From an uncultured Mollicutes bacterium (GTDB taxonomy: Bacteria > Bacillota_I > Bacilli_A > RFN20 > CAG-826), in contig UQCQ01000001.1 of assembly GCA_900539595.1 (NCBI GenBank), positions 172,291 to 236,290 on the forward strand: DNA of 64,000 bases. Reading direction: 5' to 3'. Position numbers and translations under genes: made by a program. Under the pieces are notes generated by a model, which worked only from the letters and a program-made list of their open reading frames with translations, did no database searches and was not told the DNA's origin. Positions within the stretch are counted from its first letter, which is position 1; every line of letters begins with the position of its first letter. Positions 18,537 to 42,322 of this stretch are shown here, in pieces.

Positions 18537-19939
18537 CTTTTTTCCTCCTTCCTGCAGATCTCGAATTCCTTCTCTCGGAAGCCGTTCTGCGCGTAATAGT
18601 CATTCCTGAATGTCACCGTATAGCACATGTCGTCGTATTCAGAATAAAGTTCCAGCATCAGCATGAGGAACTGTTTCTCCTTCGTATCCTGATCGATATC
18701 CTTAGAGGAGACTTTGTTTCTATCTCCCAGCACCTCGGAGGCAAACTCGTTGACCTTTTCCTTAGAGAAGGCATCCTCATCGAATAAATGAGCTTCTTCT
18801 TTCTGGATTTCCTCATCAGAGACATTGGGTATCTCACTTGGAGAATAGGTGATTTTCTCTTTATCGAAGCTTCTGGAGTATGTGGACCGGTCATCGATCT
18901 GGATCGTCGAATAAATCCCCACCACATCCTCGAAACTCTCTTTCGGATCTGCTTTGGCAAGAGCCTTCAAGGCAGAATTCAGAAGCCCATTGACATCCCT
19001 TCTAGTATTGATGAGGAACTTCAGTCTTGCCAAGGCTGAATTATGGAATTTCATGTTCCGGCGATCGATGAGCGAGACGAAGTCGTTCACAGACTCGAAT
19101 TTGGCGATGCAGTCGTCCAGCCCGTCGGCGACGGATTTCTCTAGTTCTTTGTACTTCTCGCCGGTCAGGCCACTGGTGTGGGTGGCAAAGCTATCGACGA
19201 TGCGCTCGAAATCCTCTCTGTTGTAACGAAATGCTCTTAGCTTCACCAGGATCTCCGACGTATACTTTGAAGGATTGTCTTTCCCCTTCAGGCTGTTGAA
19301 GGCAGTCAGGACGACCTGGTCTTGGTATTTGTATAGCAAGGTATCCAAGACTTCCTCTGGGGTGATATCCGGCCGGTTGATCATCTCCTCAATGAAACGC
19401 CGGATGGTCGAACTCAGCCCTTGAAGGCTGTTGAACAGATCGACAGTGTTCTTTTCTATTTGCTCAAGGCGGGCTTTCGCCTCATTGAACTCAAACGTCT
19501 GAAGAAGAGAATAGACCGTGTAGAAATAACCGGTGTACTCCAAGGGACGATCCTGCTGCGAAACGATTTCATGGAAAACCTGAAGTAGTTTCAAGGCGTT
19601 GTCGTTCAAGGAGTAGGCGACCGTGAACTGATGAGTCTCGTCCGGGTCCTCTTCGAGCCAGCCGGCCTTCTTGAACTGCTTGATTTTGAGAACAGCTTTG
19701 TCTTTAGCGCTTTTGGTTGCGATGTCTTCCCCTTCCTCGTCTTCTAAGCTGCCGAAATCCCGTGACTGGATATAGGCCGTTAAGTCATCAATCAAGTCAT
19801 CCCTAGAAATGGTCTGCCGTCTCTCGCCTTTGGTGAAAAGGTCGTAAATCACCGAAAGAAGGTCGTAATTGGCATTGCGATCTTCTCGGGAGAATACGGT
19901 GAAGATTCTTGGGTTCAGGATTTCAAACAGCTGATTCAT
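18533..19939 (-). CDS. jetA: Wadjet JetA (MksF-like, DUF3375-type)
   Basis: 468-aa first gene of the operon, with a 4-bp overlap onto jetB. Assigned by operon position and size; no catalytic motif is expected. Confidence 0.55.
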   Translation of the reverse strand: MNQLFEILNPRIFTVFSREDRNANYDLLSVIYDLFTKGERRQTISRDDLIDDLTAYIQSRDFGSLEDEEGEDIATKSAKDKAVLKIKQFKKAGWLEEDPDETHQFTVAYSLNDNALKLLQVFHEIVSQQDRPLEYTGYFYTVYSLLQTFEFNEAKARLEQIEKNTVDLFNSLQGLSSTIRRFIEEMINRPDITPEEVLDTLLYKYQDQVVLTAFNSLKGKDNPSKYTSEILVKLRAFRYNREDFERIVDSFATHTSGLTGEKYKELEKSVADGLDDCIAKFESVNDFVSLIDRRNMKFHNSALARLKFLINTRRDVNGLLNSALKALAKADPKESFEDVVGIYSTIQIDDRSTYSRSFDKEKITYSPSEIPNVSDEEIQKEEAHLFDEDAFSKEKVNEFASEVLGDRNKVSSKDIDQDTKEKQFLMLMLELYSEYDDMCYTVTFRNDYYAQNGFREKEFEICRKEEKR

Positions 19940-20615: not shown

Positions 20616-20933
20616 CTATTTAAGGCGTGCGGACGCATCGGAATTATTGTTTTCACTTGCGGAACTTTGTTCGTTCGCGTTGTTTATGGCTGTGCAAATT
20701 TTCTCTATTAGTCCCTTGAATCTATCAAAAATGATTTTGTCATTTTCCGTTAAATGTTCTTTGCCGATTACATTGATTTCAACTTGCTCATTGATTGGTA
20801 CTGATTTAAAGATAAAATCATATAAATCTTTACCAGTAACCGAGTGATCCTTTGAAATGGAAAACAATTTGCTTTCTTCTTCCATGACTACTAATTCTTC
20901 ATCAATACGTTTAATCTGTAATTGTTTTTTCAT
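20616..20933 (-). CDS. Hypothetical 105-aa protein translationally coupled to the upstream PHP-ATPase gene
   Basis: Its start overlaps the stop of the 815-aa gene by 23 bp. It has the same very low GC content and no recognisable motifs. Confidence 0.5.
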   Translation of the reverse strand: MKKQLQIKRIDEELVVMEEESKLFSISKDHSVTGKDLYDFIFKSVPINEQVEINVIGKEHLTENDKIIFDRFKGLIEKICTAINNANEQSSASENNNSDASARLK

Positions 20934-23358
20934 ATCTTTTCCATCTCTTTCTTAATGAATCTACACCGCCATCTAGATTTTCACTTACTATTTTTAAAAT
21001 ATCTAGATTTTTATCCTGATATTCTAGCGCACCACTTTCTATTTGAAGAACGCCATCTTTTGTATCGTGAAAATAAATCACATTATCAGCATCGAGGTTA
21101 ACAACAAATTGGGGATTATGAGTGACTAAAATGATTTGTTTGTTTTTTGACATTTCTTTGAGGTCTTTTACAACGCTTGCTTTGATACTTGGCTGGGAAA
21201 TGTCATCCTCCGGTTGATCAATAATGTAAATGGTATTTTCTTTGCTATGTGCCAAGATATCTATATATTTAGCCGAATTAAAGCCGGCCGAATAAGTTGC
21301 TGTTACATCCTCTCCTTTTTTGATTATGACTTGTTTTGACTTGAGGGCATTTTCTATTTCGGTATCAATTTTAGCCTTCAATATATCAACTGGATCTTCG
21401 GAGGTGGTTTCATCTTTATCTTTTATGGATGATAAAAATTGATCTTTTGTTAAGCTTTTAAGGTCAAAAATTTTATTTAAGTCTGCTCCTTGTTTCATTA
21501 CATTAGCTAATAACTCTTCGCAAAACGAACTATCATAGAAAGCTTTATTGGAAGCAAAGCGACTTACAAGTTTGACATCGCTTAATTCTGTGTATTTATA
21601 GTCTGGTGTGTATTTTTCAAAAGAAAATCTGAAGACTGTAATTTTTGATTTTTTTCTTAGAATGGTCGAGATTTTGTCGGCAAAATGTTCAGAGGTTGTT
21701 TCGAAGGTTGTCCATTTCGCATCTTTGCTATTTTGAATAGCGCTTTGCTCGGAAATTAAAGAATCAATCGAATCATTAATACAATTTCTAATTTTGTTAT
21801 TCCATTCGATAAGATTCGTTTTACTTGAATATTTCTTTATAAGAGACTCGATATTATTACGCGTTTCAGTCAAAAGTTTTTTATCGACAGGGTCTGTGAT
21901 GAATTTAAGTGCTTCATCGATAGGGGTTAATGTTTTTTTGAGATTGGAGACAATTGATTCAAATGTGGAGCTTTCCTCAAAAGAAAAATCGGGTATTTTC
22001 TTTGGCTGTAAAGAAACTCCAGGAGAAGGTTCTATATTCAAATCGATTGTTTCATTGAAAAAATTAAGAATTTCTTGGTCTAAAGAAAATTTATCTGATA
22101 AAGCCCCATAAAATTTTTGAAAACTATTTTCGAGCTTCTCCTTCAAAACGGAAGAATCTGTTTCGGCTGGTTGGAATTTTTTGATGAGGGGATTGGAAAA
22201 GAATGTACCAGTTTCAAATGAATTTCGAATTTCACCTTGGAAGTCGAATTGAAAATTTAGGTTATTTTTAATTCTATCTATTTTTATGTCTTTGCTTTTT
22301 AGGTAATTGGCATATTCTTTCTTTTTCTTAGGTGTTGCTTTTCCGTCATTTGTCTTTCTATAGTTGGTTAACTCATGAAGAAACATCGATTTTCCTTTTG
22401 AGTTGTCACCTATTATCGCATTTATGCCTCGAGACAAAGGTATGCTGAATTTGTTTCCTTTAATACTATAGTCGAGCGATTCGAGAAAATTGTTCGAATT
22501 ATAAAAGAAAGTATTATTGCGAAGTATCCGAGTGTCATCCGTCAAAGCCATGGCCAGCCCTCTAAATGTTGGCAAGCATTTGAGGAAGGTCGGAGACATT
22601 TCTCCTTCCCTAGCGTTGCATTTGTCATGATGTGGGTAGGCCTCCCATTGATGACAATCAGAGCCGGTGATAAAACGAACCTTTTCGTAGGTTTCATTTG
22701 CTCGTTTCTTAAAGAGGTAGTGAAAGACATGGGTGTTTTCGGTCTTGAATTCATAAGCTTCGAAGTACCCAAAATTTAAAAGCTCATTAAATTTATCCGT
22801 TCCTAAAGCTTTTGCATCAGGTGAGGATTGCTTCTCACTCCCTGGCGAGTTTTTTTGGTGCGCAATTAAGCAAACGTTCATTCCGCTTTTTTGAAGTATG
22901 TCTCGGAAGGTTTTTTCAGCAAACATTTGCAAATTATGGGAATTCTTGGATCCAACAGCATCATAATTTTGGGATTTCAACAACCTTTCCAAGTCTTTTA
23001 CTTTTTCATCGTTTGAATCGTCAAATATTGCTATTACATGAACTTGTTTTGTTGTCACAATGCCTTCATCTTTTGTCTCTATTCCGACAGAGAACTCAAC
23101 GCCGGGAAGGATTTTCTTGAATTCTTTTCCTTCGTGTTCTTTCAAAGCATGGTAAAGGGAATAATCAAAGCAATCATGGTCAGTTATAGCAAACATATCT
23201 ATCGAATTATCTTTGAGCTTTGACAATAAGACTGGGATATTTTTAATCGTTCCGTCCTTTACAAGACTTCCGTCTTTTTTTGATGAAGCTGCTGAATGAA
23301 TATGAAAATCGACTTTTTGGCCTTGCAGAACTATCTTATCCATGATGGCGTCCCCCAT
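20911..23358 (-). CDS. PHP phosphoesterase domain fused to an ABC/SMC-type ATPase; Ppl-like defence protein candidate
   Basis: N-terminal PHP motifs (VDFHIHSAASS..., ITDHDC, further His/Asp ligands). Walker A NAIIGDNSKGKSMFL. C-terminal Walker B IYIIDQPEDDIS and H-loop LVTHNPQFV. 815 aa. Confidence 0.6.
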   Translation of the reverse strand: MGDAIMDKIVLQGQKVDFHIHSAASSKKDGSLVKDGTIKNIPVLLSKLKDNSIDMFAITDHDCFDYSLYHALKEHEGKEFKKILPGVEFSVGIETKDEGIVTTKQVHVIAIFDDSNDEKVKDLERLLKSQNYDAVGSKNSHNLQMFAEKTFRDILQKSGMNVCLIAHQKNSPGSEKQSSPDAKALGTDKFNELLNFGYFEAYEFKTENTHVFHYLFKKRANETYEKVRFITGSDCHQWEAYPHHDKCNAREGEMSPTFLKCLPTFRGLAMALTDDTRILRNNTFFYNSNNFLESLDYSIKGNKFSIPLSRGINAIIGDNSKGKSMFLHELTNYRKTNDGKATPKKKKEYANYLKSKDIKIDRIKNNLNFQFDFQGEIRNSFETGTFFSNPLIKKFQPAETDSSVLKEKLENSFQKFYGALSDKFSLDQEILNFFNETIDLNIEPSPGVSLQPKKIPDFSFEESSTFESIVSNLKKTLTPIDEALKFITDPVDKKLLTETRNNIESLIKKYSSKTNLIEWNNKIRNCINDSIDSLISEQSAIQNSKDAKWTTFETTSEHFADKISTILRKKSKITVFRFSFEKYTPDYKYTELSDVKLVSRFASNKAFYDSSFCEELLANVMKQGADLNKIFDLKSLTKDQFLSSIKDKDETTSEDPVDILKAKIDTEIENALKSKQVIIKKGEDVTATYSAGFNSAKYIDILAHSKENTIYIIDQPEDDISQPSIKASVVKDLKEMSKNKQIILVTHNPQFVVNLDADNVIYFHDTKDGVLQIESGALEYQDKNLDILKIVSENLDGGVDSLRKRWKRYEKTITD

Positions 23359-23519
23359 TGAATGATTTAAAAAAGTCTTTTGGTTATGTTTACTATAAGT
23401 AGATTATATTATGAATCGCATTTTATATGAAAAATCAAACGTCAGGAAGGGCGTCAGGTACTTGCTTGCCATTTGGAACAAATCGATTGTTTACGAAGTT
23501 TGAAATGGATAAAGCAAGA

Positions 23520-25286
23520 TTAACCTTTAAGTTTAAACTTTTCTTTGAGGTATTTGTTTAAGTTTTTATCGCAGCAGTAAATATACGTTCCCTTCATTCC
23601 TCTAGTCAGAAGAACGAGATAGGAATTGATGATGTCCTCAATCGTTTTGTTGACATCCGTCCCTACTTTTCCATGCTTATCATAATAGGAACTTGGAACG
23701 AATTCGATGATGCCTTTTTCTTTGTTGAAACGGATATCGTTTGAAAAGATGACGCCTGCATAATTCAGATCATATCCCTGGCAGGTGAAAACCGAGCCGA
23801 TAAGCGATACGGATTTCTTATCGGTTGCGAAGTTTTCGTTGATTCCATTCCAACTGTATTTCTTTCCGTCAATCATAAAATCATAGTCCTGGGTGGAATG
23901 GATTCCTTTCTTATCTCGCATGGATTTTGTGAATGGGAAACCATAGCCAGAGACGACTCGGCATAATCCGTCGTATTCCTTGTCTTTTTCCTTTATCGCA
24001 TCCATCATTTCGGCACAGTCGTCGAATATCTTGAAATCGTATCCTGTAGAACGAAAGTCGGGTGCGTTTTCCTTTGTTTCGTTTCGCAGCAACTTCGACC
24101 AATAGGAGATGTAGTCTTCTCCGGCAATGAGCCGGATCTGATGGTTAATCGGATACCAGTTGTTCTTTTTCTCATCCTTCATGGCAAGGAAATCCTTCTC
24201 TGGAACATCGGCACCGGAGGTGGACTGCTTTCGGTCATAGAAAAAGATTGCGACATGTTTCGCCTGCTTCTTGATCCAGTCGAGCTGAGTGGTGTTTACA
24301 TAGTCAGTGAAACCAAGACGATTATCGGCTTGCTTGAACGAGAGATGGCTTGTGGATTTTCCGTATGTGGCGAGGTGGTGAGCTTCGTCTACTAAGACGA
24401 TGTCGTAGCCTTCTTTTCTCTTCGTCAGGTCGACAGGGCTGACGACATCCACGTTTTTCAAGGATGGTATATTCTTGAACACGGACTTCACCGTGTTTCT
24501 GAACTCCGTCATCGGAGCAACGAAGGCGATGCTCGGCTTTGGAAGATTTGCTAGCTCCCGGTTCATCTGCATGTAGCTGATTGTGCTCTCAAGATCCTCG
24601 TAGCTATCGATGTCGGTATAGTCGATTTTCTGGGTGCAGACGTCTGCGATGTATTTGATGAGGGAGACGGCGAGAATCGATTTCCCGGTCCCCGCTCCTC
24701 CTTCTACGACGATGTTTCTCTTCTGCCCAGTTTTCAATGCGTCGGTTATATCAGCAAGGAGTTTTGCTTCAAGGTCATATTGCTCATCTGTAAGCTGTTT
24801 GAATGGTGAGTATTTGAAAATCTTGGAGTTCTCTACTTGTAGGATGGTTTTGTCTGCTAAGCCCTTGTCTCTCAATTGTTTCCAGATTCTCTTGAACAGC
24901 TCTTTGTATAAGGCACGCTGATAGTAGTTGTGGAACTTGGACTGCCCATTGTTCAGGTTTTGGAGCTCATACTTTCCATCTGCGTGCATGTGCTCGATGA
25001 GCATGTTCTCGATATCCAGAATGGCGGATTTGTTGAACATGTCGTTGAAGAGGACGTATTCGTTTATCATTGGCTTTCTTACGGAATTTTCCAGATGCTG
25101 AAGCATACGATTATATGCGCTTGAGGTTTCACCAACGTAGGCAACAGGCTTCTGCCCGTCTTTTCCATCTAAAATATAGACGACAGGCCAGTCGACTCCT
25201 TTGTTTGTGCTCAAAAGAGCCTTTGCGCCGTCTTCGTTGAAGCTGTATGTTCCGATGGTTGTCGTAGGAAGTGCTGTGTGTTCCAT
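23520..25286 (-). CDS. GIY-YIG nuclease domain fused to a DUF2075-type P-loop NTPase (Schlafen-like helicase-related ATPase)
   Basis: N-terminus VVYILDG....AYVGETSSAYNRMLQHLEN (GIY-YIG). Walker A VVEGGAGTGKSILAVSL and Walker B/DEAH IVLVDEAHHL. Confidence 0.65.
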   Translation of the reverse strand: MEHTALPTTTIGTYSFNEDGAKALLSTNKGVDWPVVYILDGKDGQKPVAYVGETSSAYNRMLQHLENSVRKPMINEYVLFNDMFNKSAILDIENMLIEHMHADGKYELQNLNNGQSKFHNYYQRALYKELFKRIWKQLRDKGLADKTILQVENSKIFKYSPFKQLTDEQYDLEAKLLADITDALKTGQKRNIVVEGGAGTGKSILAVSLIKYIADVCTQKIDYTDIDSYEDLESTISYMQMNRELANLPKPSIAFVAPMTEFRNTVKSVFKNIPSLKNVDVVSPVDLTKRKEGYDIVLVDEAHHLATYGKSTSHLSFKQADNRLGFTDYVNTTQLDWIKKQAKHVAIFFYDRKQSTSGADVPEKDFLAMKDEKKNNWYPINHQIRLIAGEDYISYWSKLLRNETKENAPDFRSTGYDFKIFDDCAEMMDAIKEKDKEYDGLCRVVSGYGFPFTKSMRDKKGIHSTQDYDFMIDGKKYSWNGINENFATDKKSVSLIGSVFTCQGYDLNYAGVIFSNDIRFNKEKGIIEFVPSSYYDKHGKVGTDVNKTIEDIINSYLVLLTRGMKGTYIYCCDKNLNKYLKEKFKLKG

Positions 25287-26014: not shown

Positions 26015-29000
26015 ATGGCAGAGTACATAGACAACAAGACCAAGCTTCTTGGTGACGATTTGAAGAAGGAACTTAGCGAATCATCCCAAGTGGAAATCAT
26101 CGCCTCGGTCTTTACTATTTACGCTTTTGAATCCCTGAAAGAAGAACTCGAAAAAGTCTCGGAACTCCGTTTTATCTTTTCTTCGCCTGCCTTTGCCCAG
26201 AAGATGCTAAATGGTGTAGACAAGAAACCCAAGGAATTCATGATATCCGAGGCGTTCTCCAAGACGTCCCTTTATGGGACTTCTTTTGAGTTGAAGCTTA
26301 AGAATCAGCTTACCCAGAAGGCGGTTGCCAGAGAATGCGCAGACTGGATTCGAAAGAAAGTGCGCTTCAAGGCAAACGTGTCCGGTCAGGACGCCAACAG
26401 CTTCATCGCTGTGAACAAACCTTATGATCCTAGCTCTACCATTGCGTATAGCCCTATCGCCTCTGGCTTTTCTAGTGACTCCCTTGGCTATTCGAAGACA
26501 AAGCAGCTTTTCAGCATCACCGTGAAGATAGGGGCCAACGAAGGCGCGTTGTCCTTTTCTAAGAATTTCGAGGATTTCTGGAATGATTCTGAGAAAACAC
26601 AGGATGTCACCGATGCCGTTATCGATTATATCGGAACAGCCTATAAGGACAATTCGCCGGAATTCCTCTATTACGTCACTTTATACAATATCTTCAAGGA
26701 TTTCCTTGATGATATCCTTTCAGAAGACAATATGCCCAATGACGCCACAGGTTATAAGGATTCCCTTATTTGGAAGAAGCTTTACTCCTTCCAAAAAGAC
26801 GGGGCCATTGGCGTCATCAACAAGCTTGAAAAATACAACGGATGCATCCTTGCCGATTCTGTCGGTTTAGGTAAGACATTCACCGCGTTGGCGGTCATGA
26901 AATACTACTCTTCCCGGAACAAGAACATCCTCGTCCTTGCCCCAAAGAGACTCTCCAACAATTGGAACCAATACAAAGACAATCTGAAGACGAACCTTTT
27001 CTGGAATGATCATATCCGCTATGACGTTCTCTACCATACAGATTTGGGAAGATCCAAGGGTTATTCCAATGGCCATGATTTATCTATATTCAACTGGGAG
27101 AACTATGATCTTCTTATTATCGATGAATCCCACAACTTCAGGAATGCCCAACATTTCCGCGGAAGAGAGACGAGATATGAATTCCTGATGAATCATGTCA
27201 TCAAGCCAGGCGTGAAGACCAAGGTTCTCATGCTTTCGGCAACTCCGGTAAACAACCGCTTTACAGATCTTAGAAACCAGTTGGCCCTTGCCTACGGAGA
27301 CAATCAGGAAGAGTTCAACGAAAAACTGGATACCAAGAAAAACGTGGACGTCATCCTCAGAAACGCCCAGCAGACTTATAACGAATGGTGCAAGCTTCCG
27401 AAAGCGGAACGCCATACCAAAGATCTTATGAACAGTTTGGATATGGATTTCTCGGTGCTTCTGGACAACGTCACTATCGCAAGATCGAGAAAGCACATCA
27501 CGAAATACTATGATATGAGTGAAATCGGCCATTTTCCAAAGAGAAAGAAACCTATCTCACTTTATACGGATATTGCCAAGGACGAAGACAGAATCGCCTA
27601 TGATGATTTGTTCAAGACGCTGAAACAATTAAGACAGGCAGTCTACGCCCCGATGAATTACATCCAGCCGAGCAAACTGGTAAAATACGAGAACATGTAC
27701 GACACTACCGGAGTTGCCGGCAATCGCCCTGATCTCAAGCAGATCAACCGTGAGCTCGCCCTTCAGAACCTGATGACCGTGTCCCTCCTCAAACGACTTG
27801 AATCCTCCGTGGATGCGTTCCGAATCACCTTAAGCCATGTGAAGAATGTCAACAAGAACACTCTTTCGGCTATCGAAAATTTTGAGAGACTCCATATTTC
27901 AAGTCTCAAAGGCGAATTCGCCAACATCAATCCTGACGATTTCGACGAAGAGGATATGGATAACGACGAGAAGTGGGGGACCACAGGCAAGATCACCATC
28001 GACTTCGCCGATATGGACCTGCTTTCCTTCAAGAACGACATCACACGCGATATCGAAATCCTTTCCGGTTTATTGGAACTCATGGAATGGATCACTCCTT
28101 CCAAGGATTTGAAACTGAACAAGCTTGTCTCCATCATCGAGGACAAGATTTCGAATCCAATCAATCCTGGTAACCGGAAAGTGCTTATCTTTTCCGCATT
28201 CGCCGATACGGCAAACTACCTTTATGAAAACCTGTCAGTCCATTTCAAGGAAAAGTATGGAATGAATAGTGCGGTCGTTACCGGAAGCAAAACGAACAAG
28301 TCTACTATTGCTTCTCTTCATGACACCGAGGAAATCCTCACCTTGTTCTCTCCGCTTTCCAAGGAAAAAAGGGTCAAGATGCCGAATGATAATCGTAACA
28401 TCGATATTCTTATTGCTACGGACTGTCTTTCCGAAGGACAGAACCTGCAGGATTGTGATGAGTGCATCAATTACGATATCCATTGGAATCCAGTGAGAAT
28501 CGTCCAGAGATTCGGCCGTATCGACCGAATCGGCTCCAAGAACGACTATATCCAGCTCGTCAATTTCTGGCCGAATATGTCTTTGGATGAATACATCAAC
28601 CTGACCAACCGTGTCGAAAATCGTATGTCCATCGTCGATGCCACGGCAACCGGGGATGACAACATCATCTCCGAAGAGAATGTAGAGCTTGATTACCGCA
28701 AGGAGCAGCTCAAGAAACTCCAGAACGGCGAACTCCAGGATCTGGAGGATATCGACGGCTCCATTACGATTACGGATCTTGGATTGAATGACTTTAGAAT
28801 GGACCTCGCTAACTATATCCGTGAGAAAGGTTATCCTGATGGTGTTCCCTATGGCTTATATGCCGTCACAAAGGAAGACAAGGAAAAAGGAATCGTTCCT
28901 GGTGTGATCTTTGCCTTGAAGAATACCAATGACAAGGTATCCATCCACACGAAGAACAGACTCCATCCTTATTATCTTGTTTATCTCGATATGGATGGAA

Positions 29001-29296
29001 ACGTTGTCTATGACTATACCCAGGTGAAGAAAATACTCGATGTGATGCGGACAATATCCAAGCATCATCCGGAACCGGACCGCTCCCTCTGTTCTTCTTT
29101 TAACAAGGAAACGAAGGATGGAACCAAAATGGAGAAGTATTCGGATCTCCTCGAGGCGTCTGTCGCCTCGATCATCGACGTGAAGAAACAGGATGATTTC
29201 GCTTCCCTGCTATCCGATGGAAGCGATGTTCTTTATGACGGAGGCATAAAGGGGTTAGATGACTTCCAGCTCGTCAGCTTCTTTGTGATCAGATAA
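26015..29296 (+). CDS. SNF2-family helicase with a ~250-aa N-terminal extension of unknown function
   Basis: Motif I LADSVGLGKTFTALAV, motif II LLIIDESHNFRN, motif III LMLSATPVNN, motif VI QRFGRIDRIGS. It is the first gene of a four-gene operon ending in a type III R-M pair. Confidence 0.8.
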   Translation: MAEYIDNKTKLLGDDLKKELSESSQVEIIASVFTIYAFESLKEELEKVSELRFIFSSPAFAQKMLNGVDKKPKEFMISEAFSKTSLYGTSFELKLKNQLTQKAVARECADWIRKKVRFKANVSGQDANSFIAVNKPYDPSSTIAYSPIASGFSSDSLGYSKTKQLFSITVKIGANEGALSFSKNFEDFWNDSEKTQDVTDAVIDYIGTAYKDNSPEFLYYVTLYNIFKDFLDDILSEDNMPNDATGYKDSLIWKKLYSFQKDGAIGVINKLEKYNGCILADSVGLGKTFTALAVMKYYSSRNKNILVLAPKRLSNNWNQYKDNLKTNLFWNDHIRYDVLYHTDLGRSKGYSNGHDLSIFNWENYDLLIIDESHNFRNAQHFRGRETRYEFLMNHVIKPGVKTKVLMLSATPVNNRFTDLRNQLALAYGDNQEEFNEKLDTKKNVDVILRNAQQTYNEWCKLPKAERHTKDLMNSLDMDFSVLLDNVTIARSRKHITKYYDMSEIGHFPKRKKPISLYTDIAKDEDRIAYDDLFKTLKQLRQAVYAPMNYIQPSKLVKYENMYDTTGVAGNRPDLKQINRELALQNLMTVSLLKRLESSVDAFRITLSHVKNVNKNTLSAIENFERLHISSLKGEFANINPDDFDEEDMDNDEKWGTTGKITIDFADMDLLSFKNDITRDIEILSGLLELMEWITPSKDLKLNKLVSIIEDKISNPINPGNRKVLIFSAFADTANYLYENLSVHFKEKYGMNSAVVTGSKTNKSTIASLHDTEEILTLFSPLSKEKRVKMPNDNRNIDILIATDCLSEGQNLQDCDECINYDIHWNPVRIVQRFGRIDRIGSKNDYIQLVNFWPNMSLDEYINLTNRVENRMSIVDATATGDDNIISEENVELDYRKEQLKKLQNGELQDLEDIDGSITITDLGLNDFRMDLANYIREKGYPDGVPYGLYAVTKEDKEKGIVPGVIFALKNTNDKVSIHTKNRLHPYYLVYLDMDGNVVYDYTQVKKILDVMRTISKHHPEPDRSLCSSFNKETKDGTKMEKYSDLLEASVASIIDVKKQDDFASLLSDGSDVLYDGGIKGLDDFQLVSFFVIR

Positions 29297-29298
29297 CC

Positions 29299-30006
29299 AT
29301 GTTCATATTACCGAGTAAAGCGTATGTTCATCGCGAATACCCGCTTAAGGATGTCTATAAGGCGATTGGGGCAGACAAGAAGCTGATAGAGGCTTCCAAG
29401 AACATCAAGAAGATCTACATCGAATACGTCTTCAACCAGAAGAACACTAACCTTCAGGTGAAGTCGGTCAAGGAAATCCATTTCTATAAGATAGAGCTGA
29501 CAGACTTCCACGTGCCGGAGGACTTCATCCTGGCACTGGACAAGAAGGATAAGTTCCAGGTGGTGTTCATTATCACGTGTGAGGACTTGGAGAAGGATAT
29601 GACCGCTCCCAAGAGAATCAATGGGGAGGAGGTTACAAAAGCCAAATACATCCAGTCCGAATGGATGAAGATAGGGGATGATGTCAAGATACCTCCTGCC
29701 GATACTTTGGATGAACTATACTGCTTCCTCTATGGAGCCTTCAACGAATATAAGCCCTTCAAAGGTGAACTGCTTGAGAATTATATTAAAAGATGTAATG
29801 AACTGAGGAAACTCGATTATCAGATCAGTAAGACCACGATGGCAATCCAGAATGAAAGACAGTCGAAGAAGAGAATCGAATACAATCACAATCTGAACGA
29901 ATACAAAGAAAGAAAATCCTATCTATTAAACCAAAGGAGAATGGAAAATGCAGAAATTATCAGCGCAATCGAAGGATTTGTCTCAGGAGAACATAAAGAA
30001 GGTTGA
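29299..30006 (+). CDS. Hypothetical 235-aa protein between the SNF2 helicase and the methyltransferase (possibly DUF4391-type)
   Basis: Its start lies 3 bp after the SNF2 stop, and its end overlaps the mod start by 59 bp. The family assignment is inferred from the recurring helicase / DUF4391 / MTase / Res synteny, not from motifs. Confidence 0.45.
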   Translation: MFILPSKAYVHREYPLKDVYKAIGADKKLIEASKNIKKIYIEYVFNQKNTNLQVKSVKEIHFYKIELTDFHVPEDFILALDKKDKFQVVFIITCEDLEKDMTAPKRINGEEVTKAKYIQSEWMKIGDDVKIPPADTLDELYCFLYGAFNEYKPFKGELLENYIKRCNELRKLDYQISKTTMAIQNERQSKKRIEYNHNLNEYKERKSYLLNQRRMENAEIISAIEGFVSGEHKEG

Positions 30007-31849
30007 GGAATTATTCCCCAACTGCGTGACCGAAACCTATGACCAGGACGGCAACCTCGTCAGAAGCATCGACTTCGACATCCTCCGCCAGGACCTCTCC
30101 GACCATGTCGTGGAAGGCCCGAAGGAGAGATACCAGTTCAACTGGCCTGGAAAGAGAGATGCCATCCTTTTAGCAAACGCACCGACCACGAACACATTGA
30201 GACCTTTGCCAGAGAAGTCCGTCAATTTCGAGAATACGAAGAACGTCTATATCGAAGGAGATAACCTCGAGGCTCTGAAAATCCTCAGAGAGACCTACAT
30301 GGGCAAGATCAAGATGATCTACATCGACCCACCGTACAATACAGGTAATGATTTCGTCTATAAAGATGACTTCAAACAGTCTACTGAAGAATATTTGAAA
30401 TCATCCGGCGACATCGACGAGGAAGGCAACCGCATGGAAGTCAACGGAGAATCCAACGGAAGATTCCATTCAGACTGGCTCAATATGATGTATCCAAGAC
30501 TCGTTCTCGCAAGAGACTTGCTCACGGATGATGGATTGATCTTCATGAGCATCGATGACAATGAGCAGGACAATTTAGTTCGTCTAGGAAAAGAAATATT
30601 TGGCGAATCGAATTTTGTGGCGACTTTTCCTTGGAGAAAACGCACTGCGAAATCTGATGTGCCTTTTGGTGTTTCGCAGGATTTTGAATGGGTTCTCTGC
30701 TTTGCTAAATCGAGTCAAACAAGAGTTAGTATTGAAGGAAAAGAAAGAAAATACTTTGAAACGGATGATTTTCCAGGGCGTCCCTGGCGAATTCATGATT
30801 TGACTAAGCAAACCACAGCGTCTGAACGACCTAACAGTTACTTCACTATTGTGGATAAAAAAAGAAATATATCTTACCCTGCAAACCCAAATAGAACATG
30901 GTGTGTCTCTAAAGACACTTTTTCCCAATATGATGCTGAAAATCGAATCGTCTATCCTGGAGACTATCCTTTTTTGAAAATATCGCAGCCTGTTCTAAGA
31001 TATTGGAAAGAAGACGATCAGAAAAAAGATGGCGAATTATTCGGACGTGTTGCATTAAGCACATTATTTCCACAAAGTGTAGGAATGTCCCAAGATGGAA
31101 GTAAAGATGTTTTTAAATTATTCAATTCCAAAATATTCAGCTTTCCAAAGCCGGTCTCATTGATAAAGTATTTAATATCTGCTGCTACGCAAGAAGACGA
31201 TTTAATCGCAGATTTCTTTTCCGGATCCGCCACCACCGCAGAAGCCGTTTTCAAGCAAAACCTTGAAGATAATGGAAACAGAAAATTTCTTTTGATACAG
31301 ATGCCGGAACACACCGGTGATACTGAAGCCTTTAAAAATGGTTTTTCAGATATTTGCAGCCTTGCTGAGGAAAGAATACGTCGTGCAGGAAAAGTTATCA
31401 AAGAGGAAAATCTTCTTACTATAGAGGGATTTGATTTTGGATTTCGTGTATTTAAGACCGATTCTTCCAATATGAAGGATGTTTTGAGTACTCCAAAAGA
31501 AACTCAGCTGAGTCTTCTTGAAAATGCTGAGTCTGCTATTAAACCTGACCGAAGTCCTCTTGATCTTGTCACTCAAGTTATGCTTCAGCTGGGCATGACT
31601 CTCGATGCTGATATAAAAATTGGAAAGTTTGCGGGCGGAGGGCAATTCTATGCCGTTAACGGCAATGATCTCGTCTGCTGCTTTGATAAGAACATTTCCG
31701 AATCTAACATTGAGGAACTGGCTCGGATACAGCCTTTAAACGTTGCATTCAAAGATGATTCCTTTGCTTCTGATCAGGATGAAGTCAACTGTGAGCAGAT
31801 ATTTAAGACTCTTTCTCCGATTACCGGTAAAAATATCTTTGTTCTTTGA
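29948..31849 (+). CDS. mod: Type III restriction-modification Mod subunit (beta-class N6-adenine DNA methyltransferase)
   Basis: Motif IV MIYIDPPYNTGNDF precedes motif I DFFSGSATT (beta order). 633 aa, with a 4-bp overlap onto res. Confidence 0.8.
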   Translation: MQKLSAQSKDLSQENIKKVEELFPNCVTETYDQDGNLVRSIDFDILRQDLSDHVVEGPKERYQFNWPGKRDAILLANAPTTNTLRPLPEKSVNFENTKNVYIEGDNLEALKILRETYMGKIKMIYIDPPYNTGNDFVYKDDFKQSTEEYLKSSGDIDEEGNRMEVNGESNGRFHSDWLNMMYPRLVLARDLLTDDGLIFMSIDDNEQDNLVRLGKEIFGESNFVATFPWRKRTAKSDVPFGVSQDFEWVLCFAKSSQTRVSIEGKERKYFETDDFPGRPWRIHDLTKQTTASERPNSYFTIVDKKRNISYPANPNRTWCVSKDTFSQYDAENRIVYPGDYPFLKISQPVLRYWKEDDQKKDGELFGRVALSTLFPQSVGMSQDGSKDVFKLFNSKIFSFPKPVSLIKYLISAATQEDDLIADFFSGSATTAEAVFKQNLEDNGNRKFLLIQMPEHTGDTEAFKNGFSDICSLAEERIRRAGKVIKEENLLTIEGFDFGFRVFKTDSSNMKDVLSTPKETQLSLLENAESAIKPDRSPLDLVTQVMLQLGMTLDADIKIGKFAGGGQFYAVNGNDLVCCFDKNISESNIEELARIQPLNVAFKDDSFASDQDEVNCEQIFKTLSPITGKNIFVL

Positions 31850-34800
31850 GGAATTTAATTATGAAATTCATATTTAAAGAACAGGATTACCAGATATCGG
31901 CTGTGAAAGCTGTCACGGATGTTTTTGCTGGACAACGTTATCAGTCGCTTTCTCAATACACACGTGACTTGGGAAAACTTTCACCGAAAGAAGCTGGCAA
32001 GAATCAGCAATTAAGACTTGACTTAGGGCTTAATAACAAAAGCGACCTTTTGGTGGCCAAAGGCAACGATAATGATGATTTAGCCATAGGTTTTGCTAAT
32101 GCGCCAATTCAGATTGATGATCAACAGGCCTTGAAAAATATTCAAACCATTCAGATGAAATCCAATTTATCGGTGGATGAGCATCTTTCCAAAGTTCTTA
32201 GCCCTTTGGACTTAGATGTGGAGATGGAGACCGGAACGGGTAAAACCTATGTCTATATCCGCACAATGTTTGAGTTGAATAAACTTTACGGCTTTTCTAA
32301 ATTCATCGTCATGGTTCCATCCATTGCTATTCGTGAAGGTGTCAAGAAGTCATTCGAACAGACTCAGGAACACTTCATGTCCATCTACGGGAAGAAAGCC
32401 CGTTTCTTTATTTATAGCAGTGCAAACCTGGCTGAAATCGATAACTTCGCCAAAGATAGTTCCATCGAAGTGATGATCATCAACATCCAGGCTTTCAATA
32501 CGCACGGCAAGGACGGACGAAAGATTTATGAGGAACTCGATGAATTCCAGTCCAGAAGACCGATCGACGTCATCAAGAAGACTAGACCGATTCTGATTCT
32601 TGATGAGCCACAGAAGATGAGTGGAGACGCTACCAAATCTTCCATAGGTGAATTCAATCCACTTTTCACCATTAACTACTCGGCTACGCACAAAGAAAAA
32701 CACAATCTTGTATATGTTCTTGATGCCTTGGACGCCTATAACGCGAAGCTTGTTAAGAAAATCCAGGTAAAAGCAGTCAAGGTCGATAATGTCAAAGGAA
32801 CCCAGGCTTTCTTATATTTGGAGGATATCATCCTTCGAGGTGATAAAGATCCTCAGGCGAAAATCAGCTTCTTCCGCAACACCAAGCAAGGAATCAAATC
32901 CTATACACAGCTGCTTAGTCGCCAAGACAACATCTATGAACTATCCGGTTTTGATGCCACAAGCCAATTATCGGTCTATAAGAACAACTATATCGTCGAT
33001 GAAATCGATTATGTATCAAATACCGTCAGATTGCTGAACGGCATTGTTTTGCATGCCGGAGAAGTGATTGGGGATAACTCGGAAGATTTGATAAGAAGAA
33101 TACAAATCCGTGAGACTATCGCTTCCCATTTGGAAAAGGAGCAGGATAATTTCCATAAAGGAATAAAGACCCTTTCTCTTTTCTTCATCGACGAAGTCAA
33201 AAAATATAGAGACTATTCTCAGCCCGATGAAAAAGGCGAATATGCCAAGATTTTCGAGGAAGAATACAACTGGGCGGTTACTGAATTTTGCAATAACCTC
33301 ATCAACACAGATGAGGAATATAAGAAGTATCTTCAGCTATTTACTCCTGATCAGGTCCATAACGGCTATTTTTCCATCGATAAGAAAGGACATGCAATCG
33401 ATTCCAAAGCGGATCGCAAGACAGGTTTATCCGATGATCAATCCGCCTATGATTTGATTTTGAAGAACAAGGAACGTCTTCTTTCCTTCGATGAGCCCAC
33501 TCGTTTCATATTCTCCCATTCTGCCTTACGGGAGGGATGGGACAACCCGAATGTCTTCCAAATCTGCTTCTTAAGACATACCAAGAGCGAAACTCAGAAA
33601 CGGCAGGAAGTGGGTCGTGGTCTTCGTATCGCCGTAGATAAGAACGGAAACCGTCAAGACGCCACTGTTTTAAGTGATTTCTTCGGCGTGAATAAGCTTA
33701 CTGTCATTGCTAATGAGGATTACGAGTCATTCGTAAAAGGATTGCAGTCTGAAATCAAGGAAGTCCTCTATAAGCATCCGACCAAGGCGGACAAGGACTT
33801 CTTCTTTGGCAAGCCGATCACGAACGCAGAAACCAATGCTGAAACCAACATTACGGATGCTCAGGCTAGAAGCATTTACCAGTATTTGGTGAAAAACGAT
33901 TATGTGGATGCTTCTGACAATCTTACAGAGAAATTCCGTGACGATGTGGATAAGTCCATATTAGTTGACATGCCGGAAGATTTGAAACCTTATCAGGCAT
34001 CCATCATCGAACTTGCAAACAGCATCCGCAAAGGCGGAAATATTGAAATCGAAAACGGCAAGAAACCTAAGGTTCTCGAAAACAAAGTCAATCAGAATTT
34101 CGATAGAAAGGAATTCAAAGAGCTTTGGAACGCCATCAACCATAAGTACTCCTATCGCGTTTCCTTCAGCTCTGACGAATTAGTTAAGAATTGCATCGAA
34201 AGAATCAAGAAAGAATTGGAAGTTTCTAAAATAACCTATTCGGTCGATGTCGGTGAGCAGAAAGAAACTATTGATCAGAAAGATATTGATAATTCCTTCC
34301 AAAGAGGTGCCGATAGTGGAAAGAAAGAAAAACTCCATGTTGCTGCTCCTTCTTCTGCAAAATACGATCTTGTTCACGAAATAGCTCAGCGCACGCATCT
34401 TACTCGAAGAACGATTGTCCGTATTCTCGTCGGGACAAAAGAAAAGCTTCAGATGTTCCGTAATAACCCGGAAGAATACATCACAAAGATTAGTAATCTG
34501 ATTGATGATGAAAAGGCCTCTGTGATTGTTCGTGGCATCCGCTATGACAAATTGACTGACAAATTTGACGATACCATTTTCAACGAAAAGCACGCCGATT
34601 TTGATAGTCAGAAGGCTTTCAAATCCAAAAAGGCAATCCAGGATTATGTCTTTGTCGACGGTACCGCCAAAAACGGCGAATCCAATGAGATGAAGTTTGT
34701 CAAAAATCTTGAACAGCAAGAAAACGTCAAGGTATACGCAAAAATGCCTAAAGGTTTTTATATTCCTACTCCGATGGGAAGATATTCTCCTGACTGGGCC

Positions 34801-35028
34801 ATCGTCTATGAATCCAATGGCGAAAAAGGCATTTATTTCATTGCTGAAACGAAAGGAAACTTGAGTTCCTTATCTTTGCGAAAGGTTGAGGAATCCAAGA
34901 TTGAATGCGCGAAGAGCCTTTATAACCAGCCCAAATCCAAGGTCAATTATGGCTTAGTACATACCTATGATGATCTTGTCACGAAGGTGATGGACATTTT
35001 GGAAAAACACAACGGAGAGCAATCATGA
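31846..35028 (+). CDS. res: Type III restriction enzyme Res subunit (SF2 helicase plus C-terminal PD-(D/E)xK nuclease)
   Basis: Walker A VEMETGTGKTYV and DEPQ box ILILDEPQKM. C-terminal YSPDWAIVYE...IAETKG nuclease motif. 1060 aa. Confidence 0.8.
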   Translation: MRNLIMKFIFKEQDYQISAVKAVTDVFAGQRYQSLSQYTRDLGKLSPKEAGKNQQLRLDLGLNNKSDLLVAKGNDNDDLAIGFANAPIQIDDQQALKNIQTIQMKSNLSVDEHLSKVLSPLDLDVEMETGTGKTYVYIRTMFELNKLYGFSKFIVMVPSIAIREGVKKSFEQTQEHFMSIYGKKARFFIYSSANLAEIDNFAKDSSIEVMIINIQAFNTHGKDGRKIYEELDEFQSRRPIDVIKKTRPILILDEPQKMSGDATKSSIGEFNPLFTINYSATHKEKHNLVYVLDALDAYNAKLVKKIQVKAVKVDNVKGTQAFLYLEDIILRGDKDPQAKISFFRNTKQGIKSYTQLLSRQDNIYELSGFDATSQLSVYKNNYIVDEIDYVSNTVRLLNGIVLHAGEVIGDNSEDLIRRIQIRETIASHLEKEQDNFHKGIKTLSLFFIDEVKKYRDYSQPDEKGEYAKIFEEEYNWAVTEFCNNLINTDEEYKKYLQLFTPDQVHNGYFSIDKKGHAIDSKADRKTGLSDDQSAYDLILKNKERLLSFDEPTRFIFSHSALREGWDNPNVFQICFLRHTKSETQKRQEVGRGLRIAVDKNGNRQDATVLSDFFGVNKLTVIANEDYESFVKGLQSEIKEVLYKHPTKADKDFFFGKPITNAETNAETNITDAQARSIYQYLVKNDYVDASDNLTEKFRDDVDKSILVDMPEDLKPYQASIIELANSIRKGGNIEIENGKKPKVLENKVNQNFDRKEFKELWNAINHKYSYRVSFSSDELVKNCIERIKKELEVSKITYSVDVGEQKETIDQKDIDNSFQRGADSGKKEKLHVAAPSSAKYDLVHEIAQRTHLTRRTIVRILVGTKEKLQMFRNNPEEYITKISNLIDDEKASVIVRGIRYDKLTDKFDDTIFNEKHADFDSQKAFKSKKAIQDYVFVDGTAKNGESNEMKFVKNLEQQENVKVYAKMPKGFYIPTPMGRYSPDWAIVYESNGEKGIYFIAETKGNLSSLSLRKVEESKIECAKSLYNQPKSKVNYGLVHTYDDLVTKVMDILEKHNGEQS

Positions 35029-35219
35029 ACTATGCCGAGAAACTAAAAAAAATCCGTGAAACTTTACTATTATCTCAGGATGAATTGGCCAAAGAACTTA
35101 GTGTTACTTTTGCAACCGTGAATCGTTGGGAAAACGGACATCATGAGCCATCGCTAAAAGGAAAGAAGGCCATCAGAGATTACTGCAAGAAAATGCACAT
35201 TAAATTGGAAAAGGATTAA
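35025..35219 (+). CDS. XRE-family helix-turn-helix protein (64 aa)
   Basis: LSQDELAKELSVTFATVNRWENGHHEPS is a canonical Cro/CI-type HTH. Its start overlaps the res stop by 4 bp. Confidence 0.6.
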   Translation: MNYAEKLKKIRETLLLSQDELAKELSVTFATVNRWENGHHEPSLKGKKAIRDYCKKMHIKLEKD

Positions 35220-36159
35220 GATTGCTGATTTTATCGTTCTTCAAAAAATCTAAAACAAAATCTCTCCAATTTTGGTACCAATACCATTGTTTACCGACAA
35301 AGACACCATAGTGCTTTTCTGGATTTCTTGCATCATATTTTTTCCATAGCTTTGTGTGTTGATCTAGATTGAAAGTCGGAAAACCATTCTCTTTAACGAA
35401 ATTGACTATGGCACTAGGCAAAAACTTTGGCCTTTCTGTTTCTTTTATCAATAAATTTATTGCGTTGCTTTCCTCACTTCCTGACTTGACAAACCTTATT
35501 GCCTGGTCGGCTTGGTTTGGCTTGTTAACGTTTACAGGTACGAAACATACTCTATAAGAATATTTAGAATTTTCTAATATTTCGCTTGAGAGTGATTTTT
35601 CATAGGAAGAGATAATACTTGTGATGTTGTCAGCTGTCTTTTTGTTGATTAAGCCATTTTTTTGTTCTGGATTCAATGATGAAAATTGTATTGCCATACA
35701 CATAGTTTTATCTAATCCGAATTTGACGCCGAACAATTGCTTGATATAGTAATTGAAGTTGATGCTGCAAGCTTGGATTTTGGCACTTATTAATGAATCG
35801 TTTGTTTCGTAATAGCTATGCTCGATTTTGTTTCTAATTTGGATAAGAAGTTCTAAATTTTTCGCAGTAGGTTCATCTATTGGCGATTTGGTTTCTTTGA
35901 TGCTTCGCGATAAATCCCACTCTCTTTTCCGACCATCTATATATTCGTATTTGTATTTCCCATTGTCTTGAGACTTTCTATAGTAATAGCAAATATGATT
36001 TTTGTAGTAATACGCATGGAATAAATAAGTCCAGGCAATTTCTGAATTTACAATAAATAGTTCGCTTTTAAATGTGATTGTTGGATTGTTGTAGATTGCA
36101 ACTGCTGACATCATTGCTTGTCTAGCTTTTTCGACCAATGTTTTCCATTTGGCTTTCAT
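35200..36159 (-). CDS. HEPN-like protein (RNxxxH motif; Abi/DUF4145-like), 319 aa
   Basis: LELLIQIRNKIEHSYY carries an Rx4H HEPN-type motif. It is convergent with, and overlaps by 20 bp, the HTH gene at the 3' end of the R-M operon. AT-rich. Confidence 0.45.
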   Translation of the reverse strand: MKAKWKTLVEKARQAMMSAVAIYNNPTITFKSELFIVNSEIAWTYLFHAYYYKNHICYYYRKSQDNGKYKYEYIDGRKREWDLSRSIKETKSPIDEPTAKNLELLIQIRNKIEHSYYETNDSLISAKIQACSINFNYYIKQLFGVKFGLDKTMCMAIQFSSLNPEQKNGLINKKTADNITSIISSYEKSLSSEILENSKYSYRVCFVPVNVNKPNQADQAIRFVKSGSEESNAINLLIKETERPKFLPSAIVNFVKENGFPTFNLDQHTKLWKKYDARNPEKHYGVFVGKQWYWYQNWRDFVLDFLKNDKISNLNPFPI

Positions 36160-36319
36160 TTCTATACTCCTTTATTTAATGATTCGTAAAAAGATTTTTA
36201 AAAGAATATTTTGCGAATATTCACGCCTATCTTTTAACACGATAAATGCGCAAATAATTTGTAAACGTCACGTATATATTAAAACAGACCTCGATGAGAA
36301 AGGCAGTTCTGAAAAAGTC

Positions 36320-36490
36320 GGCTCGATGTTCTCCACATCGTCGAAGGGAGCGGATGCAACATGCCTCATCCTGATGATCGCTCAGACCGTACGTCTGAAC
36401 GAGCTGTGCCTGGACGGGTACGTCCGGCATCTTCTCGAGAACCAGAATGAGCTGAGCGACGGAAGGACGATGCAGAAGTATATCCCATGA
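36320..36490 (+). mobile_element. IS66-family transposase C-terminal fragment (scar)
   Basis: ...GSMFSTSSKGADATCLILMIAQTVRLNELCLDGYVRHLLEN matches the conserved IS66 tail ..NWLFS.S..GA.ASA..YSLIETAK.NGL.P..YL..LLE. Only ~57 aa are retained. GC-rich. Confidence 0.5.
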
Positions 36491-36701
36491 TCCAAGTCCA
36501 TTTCGGGCAGTGTGAAGTTCACAAAAGCGGAAATGGAGCAGGCGAAGGAAGCTGTGGTGAAGAACACGAAGAAGGGACAAAAAATAGTGGCCGGTTCCCA
36601 CGATTGCGGAAGCCGGCCTTTCTTACGGCTTTTTACAAGGGGAATTGACGCTTATCAAAAAATCTTCGGACCCATTGAATCCGAAGACTGTTTTTACTGT
36701 G

Positions 36702-36786
36702 TGGTGCGGGCAACAGGACTTGAACCTGCACGGAGTTACCCATTAGATCCTAAGTCTAACGCGTCTGCCAATTTCGCCATGCCCGC
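36702..36786 (-). tRNA. tRNA-Leu (anticodon TAG)
   Basis: The reverse complement folds as a class II tRNA: acceptor GCGGGCA/TGCCCGC, anticodon stem TTAGA/TCTAA with loop CTTAGGA, a long variable arm, T-arm GCAGG-TTCAAGT-CCTGT, and CCA encoded. Confidence 0.8.
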
Positions 36787-42034: not shown

Positions 42035-42110
42035 TGGTGCCGCGAACCGGAATCGAACCAGCAACCTACTGATTACAAATCAGTTGCTCTGCCAATTGAG
42101 CTATCGCGGC
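42035..42110 (-). tRNA. tRNA-Thr (anticodon TGT)
   Basis: Reverse complement GCCGCGA-TA-GCTC-AATTGGCA-GAGC-A-ACTGA-TTTGTAA-TCAGT-AGGTT-GCTGG-TTCGATT-CCGGT-TCGCGGC-A-CCA. Confidence 0.8.
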
Positions 42111-42119
42111 AAGCGAAGC

Positions 42120-42194
42120 TGGTGGGTGTTGGGGGGATCGAACCCTCGACCTCTTCCGTGTGAAGGAAGCGCTCTCCCTCTGAGCTAAACACCC
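42120..42194 (-). tRNA. tRNA-Val (anticodon CAC)
   Basis: The reverse complement has acceptor GGGTGTT/AACACCC, anticodon arm CTTCC-TTCACAC-GGAAG and T-loop TTCGATC, with CCA encoded. There is one A:C mismatch in the T-stem. Confidence 0.7.
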
Positions 42195-42245
42195 AAGAAA
42201 CAAAATAACCCCGGACCGTGAAGCGATCCGGGGCTTTCTTCTAAA

Positions 42246-42322
42246 TGGTGGGCCTTAATGGGCTCGAACCATCGACCTTGCGCTTATCAAGCGCACGCTC
42301 TAACCAACTGAGCTAAAGGCCC
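42246..42322 (-). tRNA. tRNA-Ile (anticodon GAT)
   Basis: The reverse complement has acceptor GGGCCTT/AAGGCCC, D-arm GCTC-AGTTGGTTA-GAGC, anticodon arm TGCGC-TTGATAA-GCGCA and T-arm GATGG-TTCGAGC-CCATT, with CCA encoded. Confidence 0.8.

Follow-up and report, generated by a model that had tools for sequence, protein, structure and literature searches.

A DUF3644-family HEPN protein at the end of a Type III restriction–modification cassette from an uncultured Mollicutes bacterium

The DUF3644 proteins were placed in the HEPN superfamily as a new 'EC042_2821' family, one that 'occurs in R-M system operons', that is, with restriction–modification (R-M) genes (Anantharaman et al. 2013, PMC3710099). 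PrrC, an HEPN-type ribonuclease (RNase) tied to an R-M system, is encoded between hsdS and hsdR (PMC3710099). Here we describe a DUF3644 gene in a 64,000-nucleotide stretch of an uncultured Mollicutes assembly (GCA_900539595.1, contig UQCQ01000001.1, positions 172,291 to 236,290), referred to below as the window, where it converges on a Type III R-M operon. The encoded protein of 319 amino acids (aa) is an ordinary member of a known, computationally characterised HEPN family. The finding is mostly confirmatory, as the family was recognised as HEPN and R-M-linked in 2013 and is already a PADLOC candidate. We consider it probable that the protein is a latent HEPN RNase serving as a second-line defence effector linked to the R-M system.

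The described representative of the family is the E. coli 042 protein. The name 'EC042_2821' was found in the literature only in Anantharaman et al. 2013 (PMC3710099), and the DUF3644 protein of E. coli 042 (WP_001222856.1, 437 aa) was located by walking the annotation; from its position and length we take it to be the prototype, the old locus tags not being shown. It resembles the window protein at 23% identity (BLASTP E 1e-07), aligns with the window subfamily over 248 columns reaching past the HEPN core (hhalign 96.9%, E 1.7e-10), and likewise matches the PADLOC candidate PDC-S19. In the ssrA island its gene directly follows the integrase and faces a convergent DNA methyltransferase gene, so that an island-edge place beside a tRNA or tmRNA gene and a convergent methyltransferase are common to both loci. 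The window protein differs in having neither the N-terminal extension of ~90 aa nor a match to PF18740, the restriction endonuclease (REase)-like C-terminal model of the EC042_2821 family. From PDC-S19 itself, a single-gene candidate of defence islands, it shows no structural difference.

Two other HEPN systems have been reported under the same domain name. HEC-08 is an HEPN protein described as 'DUF3644' and embedded in another defence system, and its H128, the histidine of Rx4-6H, is essential for phage defence (Payne et al. 2024, bioRxiv 10.1101/2024.01.29.577857). The window protein and HEC-08 share a structural neighbour in the PDB, SO_3166 (5YEP). HEC-08 is nevertheless a remote relative, and membership in it is rejected: the hhalign match is confined to 32 columns around the motif (E 0.24), and the window protein matches only PDC-S19 models, whereas HEC-08 matches the HEC-08 model and PDLC01688. 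HEC-08 has no PF12358 match at E <= 1, and its C-terminus is built of zinc-finger-like modules; cysteine clusters are lacking in the window protein. The naming is inconsistent here: HEC-08 matches the PADLOC model called DUF3644 (PDLC01688) and not the current Pfam DUF3644 family PF12358, the proteins of which fall to PDC-S19. Claims of defence made for 'DUF3644' may therefore refer to different HEPN families.

Ishtar (ist1/ist2) is a single-gene system found near defence genes. Its HEPN domain, which has been reported as either DUF4145 or DUF3644, is N-terminal, and a mixed beta/alpha domain to which no function is assigned makes up the C-terminus; the proteins cause the plasmid RP4 to be lost, with little toxicity (Poire et al. 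2026, bioRxiv 10.64898/2026.07.06.735840). Membership of the window protein in Ishtar is doubtful on the basis of the homologues given in Table S3 of that work, which lack the subfamily motifs WTYL, WYWY and QAC[SC]; ist1 and ist2 themselves were not compared. The three Table S3 homologues compared with PF12358 fell below significance, and the entries read are mostly ~165-260 aa long, against 319 aa for the window protein.

Family, fold and conserved residues of the protein

The gene and the parts of its product are as follows.
35200..36159, minus strand: DUF3644/PDC-S19 gene, 319 aa, an open reading frame (ORF) with an ATG start
36167..36172, minus strand: Shine-Dalgarno sequence AAGGAG, 7 nt 5' of the ATG, read from the sequence
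35710..36159, minus strand: HEPN domain, aa ~1-150, made up of four long helices and, at aa 58-78, a beta-hairpin insert
35818..35835, minus strand: predicted catalytic motif R109-N-K-I-E-H114 (an Rx4H in which R is followed by a polar residue)
35431..35577, minus strand: conserved middle segment, aa 195-243 (YRV.F, QAD218, IKE240TE242), near-invariant within the subfamily, structure uncertain
35224..35430, minus strand: C-terminal module, aa 244-312, similar to a MerR/excisionase winged helix (beta-alpha-alpha-beta hairpin-alpha)

Family membership is established by two profiles. Pfam PF12358 matches aa 8-189 over profile positions 2-182 of 183 (E 6.8e-48, 163.1 bits against a gathering cut-off of 27.6), and the PADLOC PDC-S19 model PDLC04948 matches aa 6-309 over positions 13-320 of 325 (E 1.3e-103); six further PDC-S19 models also match. 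NCBIfam holds no model for the protein, and a sequence search of the PDB with the family profile returned noise only (E >= 0.43). PF12358/PDC-S19 is a broad family of about 1,120 clusters at 50% identity, with at least 563 matches in GTDB species-representative genomes, some archaeal and Saccharibacteria assemblies included. It was found on 25 plasmids; phages seldom have it (3 records, 7 viral contigs).

The original prediction had described an AT-rich ORF of 319 aa carrying Rx4H, convergent with the R-M operon and overlapping a small helix-turn-helix (HTH) gene tail to tail, and all of these features are present. Its view of the product as an HEPN-type protein beside an R-M system is borne out by PF12358, PDC-S19, the predicted fold and the R-M context. 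The more specific label it proposed, DUF4145/AbiU2/Swt1-like, does not hold, as PF12358 is the only Pfam match at E <= 0.1 and no AbiU-like PADLOC model matches.

The motif region, LELLIQIRNKIEHSYY, spans aa 102-117, with RNKIEH at aa 109-114. Shuffling of the protein sequence yields Rx4H in 16% of shuffles and RNxxxH in 1.5%, so the motif alone is weak evidence for HEPN; the real support for the assignment is in the profiles and the structure. A second Rx4H occurrence (RNPEKH, aa 278-283) was discarded, since it is not conserved and position 278 is mostly K in homologues.

The N-terminus of the protein is predicted to fold as the four-helix up-down bundle of HEPN domains, the outcome that had been set beforehand as a check on the assignment. 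The conservation of the arginine and histidine, the other check, is complete: R109 and H114 are invariant in 34 homologues with identity down to 41% (alignment A1), and again in 14 aligned sequences, plasmid, phage and E. coli members among them, whose identity falls as low as 16% (alignment A5). In the Rx4-6H of HEPN proteins the arginine is, as a rule, followed by a polar residue, N, D or H (PMC3710099), and the residue in this position is N or H in the homologues, which fits the rule.

The C-terminal half is less easily read. AlphaFold2 (AF2) assigns a predicted local confidence (pLDDT) below 50 to most of the aa 195-243 segment. Within the subfamily D218, E240, E242 and K245 are conserved, and this conservation could be taken to mean that the protein acts mainly on DNA, with a divergent REase-fold C-terminus and the winged helix degrading or evicting plasmids or integrative and conjugative elements (ICEs) in place of RNA cleavage as an abortive-infection toxin, an outcome like that of Ishtar, whose HEPN and beta/alpha proteins cause plasmid loss with little toxicity. 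The C-terminal domain of EC042_2821 has been described as REase-fold (Anantharaman et al. 2013, PMC3710099), and PF18740, the 'EC042_2821-like REase-like domain', matches other DUF3644 members at the equivalent position: Listeria phage gp39 with E 7.6e-31, and more weakly the protein of locus L187 (22.4 bits, below cut-off), which is alignable at full length with the window subfamily. The C-terminal module, too, resembles the DNA-binding MerR/Xis domains. The window protein, however, has no PF18740 match even at E <= 10. D218, E240 and E242 sit where the model has low confidence, and divergent members do not keep them uniformly, so that a second nuclease activity is possible and unsupported; the confidently modelled C-terminal module contains no conserved acidic residue in the 34-homologue alignment. 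The residues invariant across the whole family (alignment A5) are those of HEPN, and the Ishtar homologue table is devoid of the subfamily signature motifs. We therefore regard a mainly DNA-directed activity as unlikely.

The C-terminal winged-helix-like module is duplicated in P0044 and P0058 (alignment A1, columns 400-493), and the proteins P0043 and P0101, like that of E. coli 042, are extended at the N-terminus by ~85-90 aa. Variation within the family thus seems to lie in its recognition modules. The gp39 gene of Listeria phage LP-HM00113468 (L186, 4001-4999), which combines DUF3644 with PF18740, lies between the lysis genes and the integrase of a temperate phage, an interval that is the usual place of prophage-encoded defence or exclusion genes.

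Restriction–modification genes next to DUF3644

The association of the family with R-M systems was assessed in a census of 80 species-representative DUF3644 loci, in which R-M genes within 6 kb were scored with a BLAST panel, giving a lower bound. An R-M component was present in at least 47 of the 80 loci, 43 having Type I and 3 having Type III components. HsdS was the nearest upstream neighbour in 22/75 loci and HsdR the nearest downstream neighbour in 14/70. The commonest layout is hsdM-hsdS-DUF3644-hsdR, exemplified by locus L012 with overlapping stop and start codons, and it corresponds to the hsdM-hsdS-X-hsdR layout of PrrC. Other contexts vary. DUF3644 directly follows a Type III Mod-Res pair in L008, with Thoeris-like genes adjoining, and in L100 (Saccharimonas) homologues of SNF2, Type III Mod and Type III Res lie within 6 kb (<=6 kb) of it. 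One distant member adjoins HNH, two C5 methyltransferases and GmrSD, and another is isolated. Compared with PrrC, the window protein has its HEPN domain at the N-terminus, its gene is convergent with a Type III system and not embedded in a Type I operon, and tRNA cleavage by it is conjectural.

The genes opposite DUF3644 in the window are the following.
26015-29296, plus strand: SNF2/HKD helicase (PADLOC C3a139 HKD+Snf2, E 9.3e-120)
29299-30006, plus strand: DUF4391 (Pfam/PADLOC scans)
29948-31849, plus strand: Type III Mod (MTase_III, E 4.3e-208)
31846-35028, plus strand: Type III Res (REase_III, E 6.2e-292)
35025..35219, plus strand: XRE-type HTH gene of 64 aa (HTH_3, E 3.8e-11), its start overlapping the Res stop (ATGA)
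35200..35219, convergent genes: tail-to-tail overlap of 20 bp between the 3' ends of HTH and DUF3644

The DUF3644 gene on the minus strand thus converges on a plus-strand operon of SNF2/HKD helicase, DUF4391, Mod, Res and HTH, and its stop codon (35200-35202) falls within the HTH gene. Its GC content is 0.333 and that of the HTH gene 0.369, against 0.41-0.45 in the R-M genes and 0.44 in the window. The promoter scan gave no more matches than expected from shuffled sequence, and no convincing one for the DUF3644 gene.

Close relatives with 95% and 84% identical DUF3644 proteins share the same cassette, and the R-M cassette is co-inherited with DUF3644 in L001, L003 and L015. The window and L001 are homologous precisely up to the start codon of DUF3644. 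Beyond this point L001 continues with ICE-type genes (a MobL relaxase and a TraG-like coupling protein), while the window has a possible transposase remnant and tRNA-Leu. As the homology ends at the start codon and the flanks differ, the cassette moves as a unit, with DUF3644 as its last gene. The SNF2/HKD helicase, DUF4391, Mod and Res arrangement recurs in the window, L001, L003 and L100, and a SNF2 gene is present in 24/51 related Res loci that have enough upstream sequence. The Mod segment at 30577-31439 of the window has no homology to that of L003, and two Mod genes are present in L001; these differences suggest that specificity domains are swapped.

The HTH gene has a narrower distribution. 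Its homologues occur only in near-identical cassettes (the window, L001-L003 and L015-L020). No HTH homologue was found beside DUF3644 in the 80 diverse loci, none was called beside it in four distant contexts viewed singly, and downstream of Type III Res neither HTH nor DUF3644 was found at 58 loci with a related Res (45-52% identity; 0/58). The HTH as a conserved partner of the family is thus rejected both from the DUF3644 side (80 loci) and from the Res side (58 loci). Because they are missing from the related Res loci and the HTH is restricted to the cassette, HTH and DUF3644 are lineage-specific add-ons to the R-M cassette.

Such a distribution could also be expected if the two genes formed a lineage-specific module in which the HTH is the repressor or antitoxin of a DUF3644 toxin, coupled to it by antisense transcription across the 3' overlap. 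In the cassette lineage the two occur together and only together, they are jointly missing from the 58 Res loci, both are AT-richer than the R-M genes (0.369 and 0.333 vs about 0.41-0.45), the terminator scan predicts nothing between the convergent genes, and the HTH is kept better than DUF3644 in a comparison of the window with L001 (95% vs 84%). A conserved adjacent partner, as expected of a Type II toxin–antitoxin pair, is however absent from the 80 diverse loci and the four distant contexts. The HTH is translationally coupled to Res through ATGA on the strand opposite DUF3644, whose promoter region is ~1 kb away, and the length of the overlap is not conserved: it is 4 bp in L001-L003 (8942-8945 in L001, 2298-2301 in L003) against 20 bp in the window. 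The HEPN toxins with known antitoxins, moreover, pair with MNT or RnlB-type proteins and not with XRE HTH proteins (PMC3710099, Table 1). We consider a toxin–antitoxin module of this kind improbable, and a coupling of HTH and DUF3644 through convergent transcription, which the original prediction had raised, is speculation. The C-terminus of the window protein is 5 aa longer than in the 95% and 84% identical relatives (…KISNLNPFPI vs …KIQQS), and by this extension the overlap of the convergent genes grows from 4 bp to 20 bp.

The surrounding defence island

Beyond the start of the DUF3644 gene, the cassette is bordered by three features.
36290..36490, plus strand: possible remnant of the C-terminus of an IS66-family transposase, 67 aa, GC 0.537 (tblastn)
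36661-36689, minus strand: strong terminator-like hairpin just 3' of tRNA-Leu (terminator scan)
36702..36786, minus strand: tRNA-Leu(TAG) (ARAGORN)

An IS66 scar at this border had been part of the original prediction. It receives weak tblastn matches in 40 plasmids (E 6e-3 to 0.7), and among the 10 matches listed an annotated 'IS66 family transposase' covers 5 and a 'transposase' 2, while 3 have no annotated feature; neither Pfam nor blastn against plasmids gave a match for the 67-aa fragment. The conserved C-terminal half with its winged-helix-like module, the tRNA-Leu gene and the defence-island setting had gone unmentioned in that prediction.

The place of the DUF3644 gene at the cassette edge, beside a possible transposase remnant, might indicate a decaying passenger, or else a non-toxic accessory or regulatory protein that binds RNA or DNA and modulates the expression or specificity of the R-M system. 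Some HEPN families are indeed non-catalytic binders, MtlR being an example (PMC3710099), and our literature search found no toxicity or defence data for the PDC-S19 subfamily. Decay is difficult to reconcile with an intact ORF, a good Shine-Dalgarno sequence and conservation along the full length of the protein. Non-catalytic HEPNs typically lose the motif (PMC3710099), whereas here the catalytic arginine and histidine are invariant over the family diversity sampled (roughly 1,100 clusters' worth), and the family is repeatedly embedded in Type I operons with overlapping stop and start codons. An accessory or passenger role is accordingly very unlikely.

Further genes of the island and its vicinity are listed below.
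13491-14708, minus strand: Wadjet JetD (PADLOC JetD, E 1.5e-91)
14705-17914, minus strand: Wadjet JetC
17892-18536, minus strand: Wadjet JetB
18533-19939, minus strand: Wadjet JetA (Pfam JetA, E 6.2e-67)
42035-42322, minus strand: three tRNA genes, Thr(TGT), Val(CAC) and Ile(GAT)

The complete Wadjet system (13491-19939), the R-M cassette and DUF3644 make up a defence island of ~23 kb that ends at tRNA-Leu, which marks its right border. A low-GC (0.33-0.37) gene pair occupies 20911-25286 on the minus strand. The 815-aa protein of this pair has no Pfam match and shows partial PADLOC matches to the ends of the ABC/AAA-type defence ATPases Ppl, PDC-M49A, GajA and PtuA, and the 588-aa protein is a Schlafen-group-3/DUF2075-type helicase with an N-terminus matching PDC-S14. 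The pair may be an undescribed two-gene defence system.

A proposed role in defence

The proposed mechanism is as follows. The N-terminal four-helix HEPN bundle, probably as a homodimer, would form a metal-independent endoribonuclease site, predicted to be built from R109, N110 and H114. The conserved C-terminal region, ending in the MerR/excisionase-like winged helix, would recognise nucleic acid or a partner. The enzyme would stay latent and back up the adjacent R-M system as an abortive-infection-like or anti-mobile-element effector, following the second-line logic of PrrC between hsdS and hsdR. In the window the gene stands last and in convergent orientation in a mobile cassette, within a defence island that borders on tRNA-Leu. 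An abortive-infection role can reasonably be inferred from the account of the superfamily (PMC3710099) together with the R-M linkage of the family. The analysis shows the family membership of the protein, its HEPN fold, the invariance of the motif, the R-M linkage and the co-inheritance with the cassette; its RNase activity, dimerisation, latency, trigger, target and defence phenotype are what we infer.

Several points weigh against this proposal. Structural comparison with Foldseek places the same family at top rank, but with weak E-values of 0.09 to 1, and about one third of the AF2 model is of low confidence (aa 155-177 and 204-242). In helix 1, the window clade has T in place of the Ex3K glutamate. 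The window locus is unlike the typical embedded Type I layout, having the gene on the opposite strand, and a Type III context is rare in the family (3/80 loci). The absence of DUF3644 from all 58 related Type III Res loci means that the R-M system does not need it. PrrC and RloC possess an N-terminal ABC-ATPase, whereas Pfam and PADLOC detect no ATPase domain in the window protein. The PDC systems of PADLOC are explicitly described as unvalidated, and our literature search found no paper naming PDC-S19 and no experiment on PDC-S19 or PF12358 proteins.

A more far-reaching version of the RNase proposal treats DUF3644/PDC-S19 proteins as PrrC-like guards that lack the ATPase. The HEPN RNase would be freed when a Type I or Type III enzyme is inhibited, or when foreign DNA is sensed through the winged helix, and the co-acquired, convergently overlapping HTH gene would add a private layer of control in the cassette lineage of the window. 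We put this forward tentatively, as a rather unlikely extension.

PF12358/PDC-S19 is widespread and strongly tied to R-M systems, and the value of the window member is a practical one. As a compact protein of 319 aa, encoded in a well-defined mobile cassette from a human gut metagenome, it is a convenient test case, which could show whether these proteins guard R-M systems, which RNA they cut and what the C-terminal module senses. Should the guard hypothesis be true, the family would represent a widespread and mechanistically new back-up module of R-M systems in bacteria, some archaea and Saccharibacteria.

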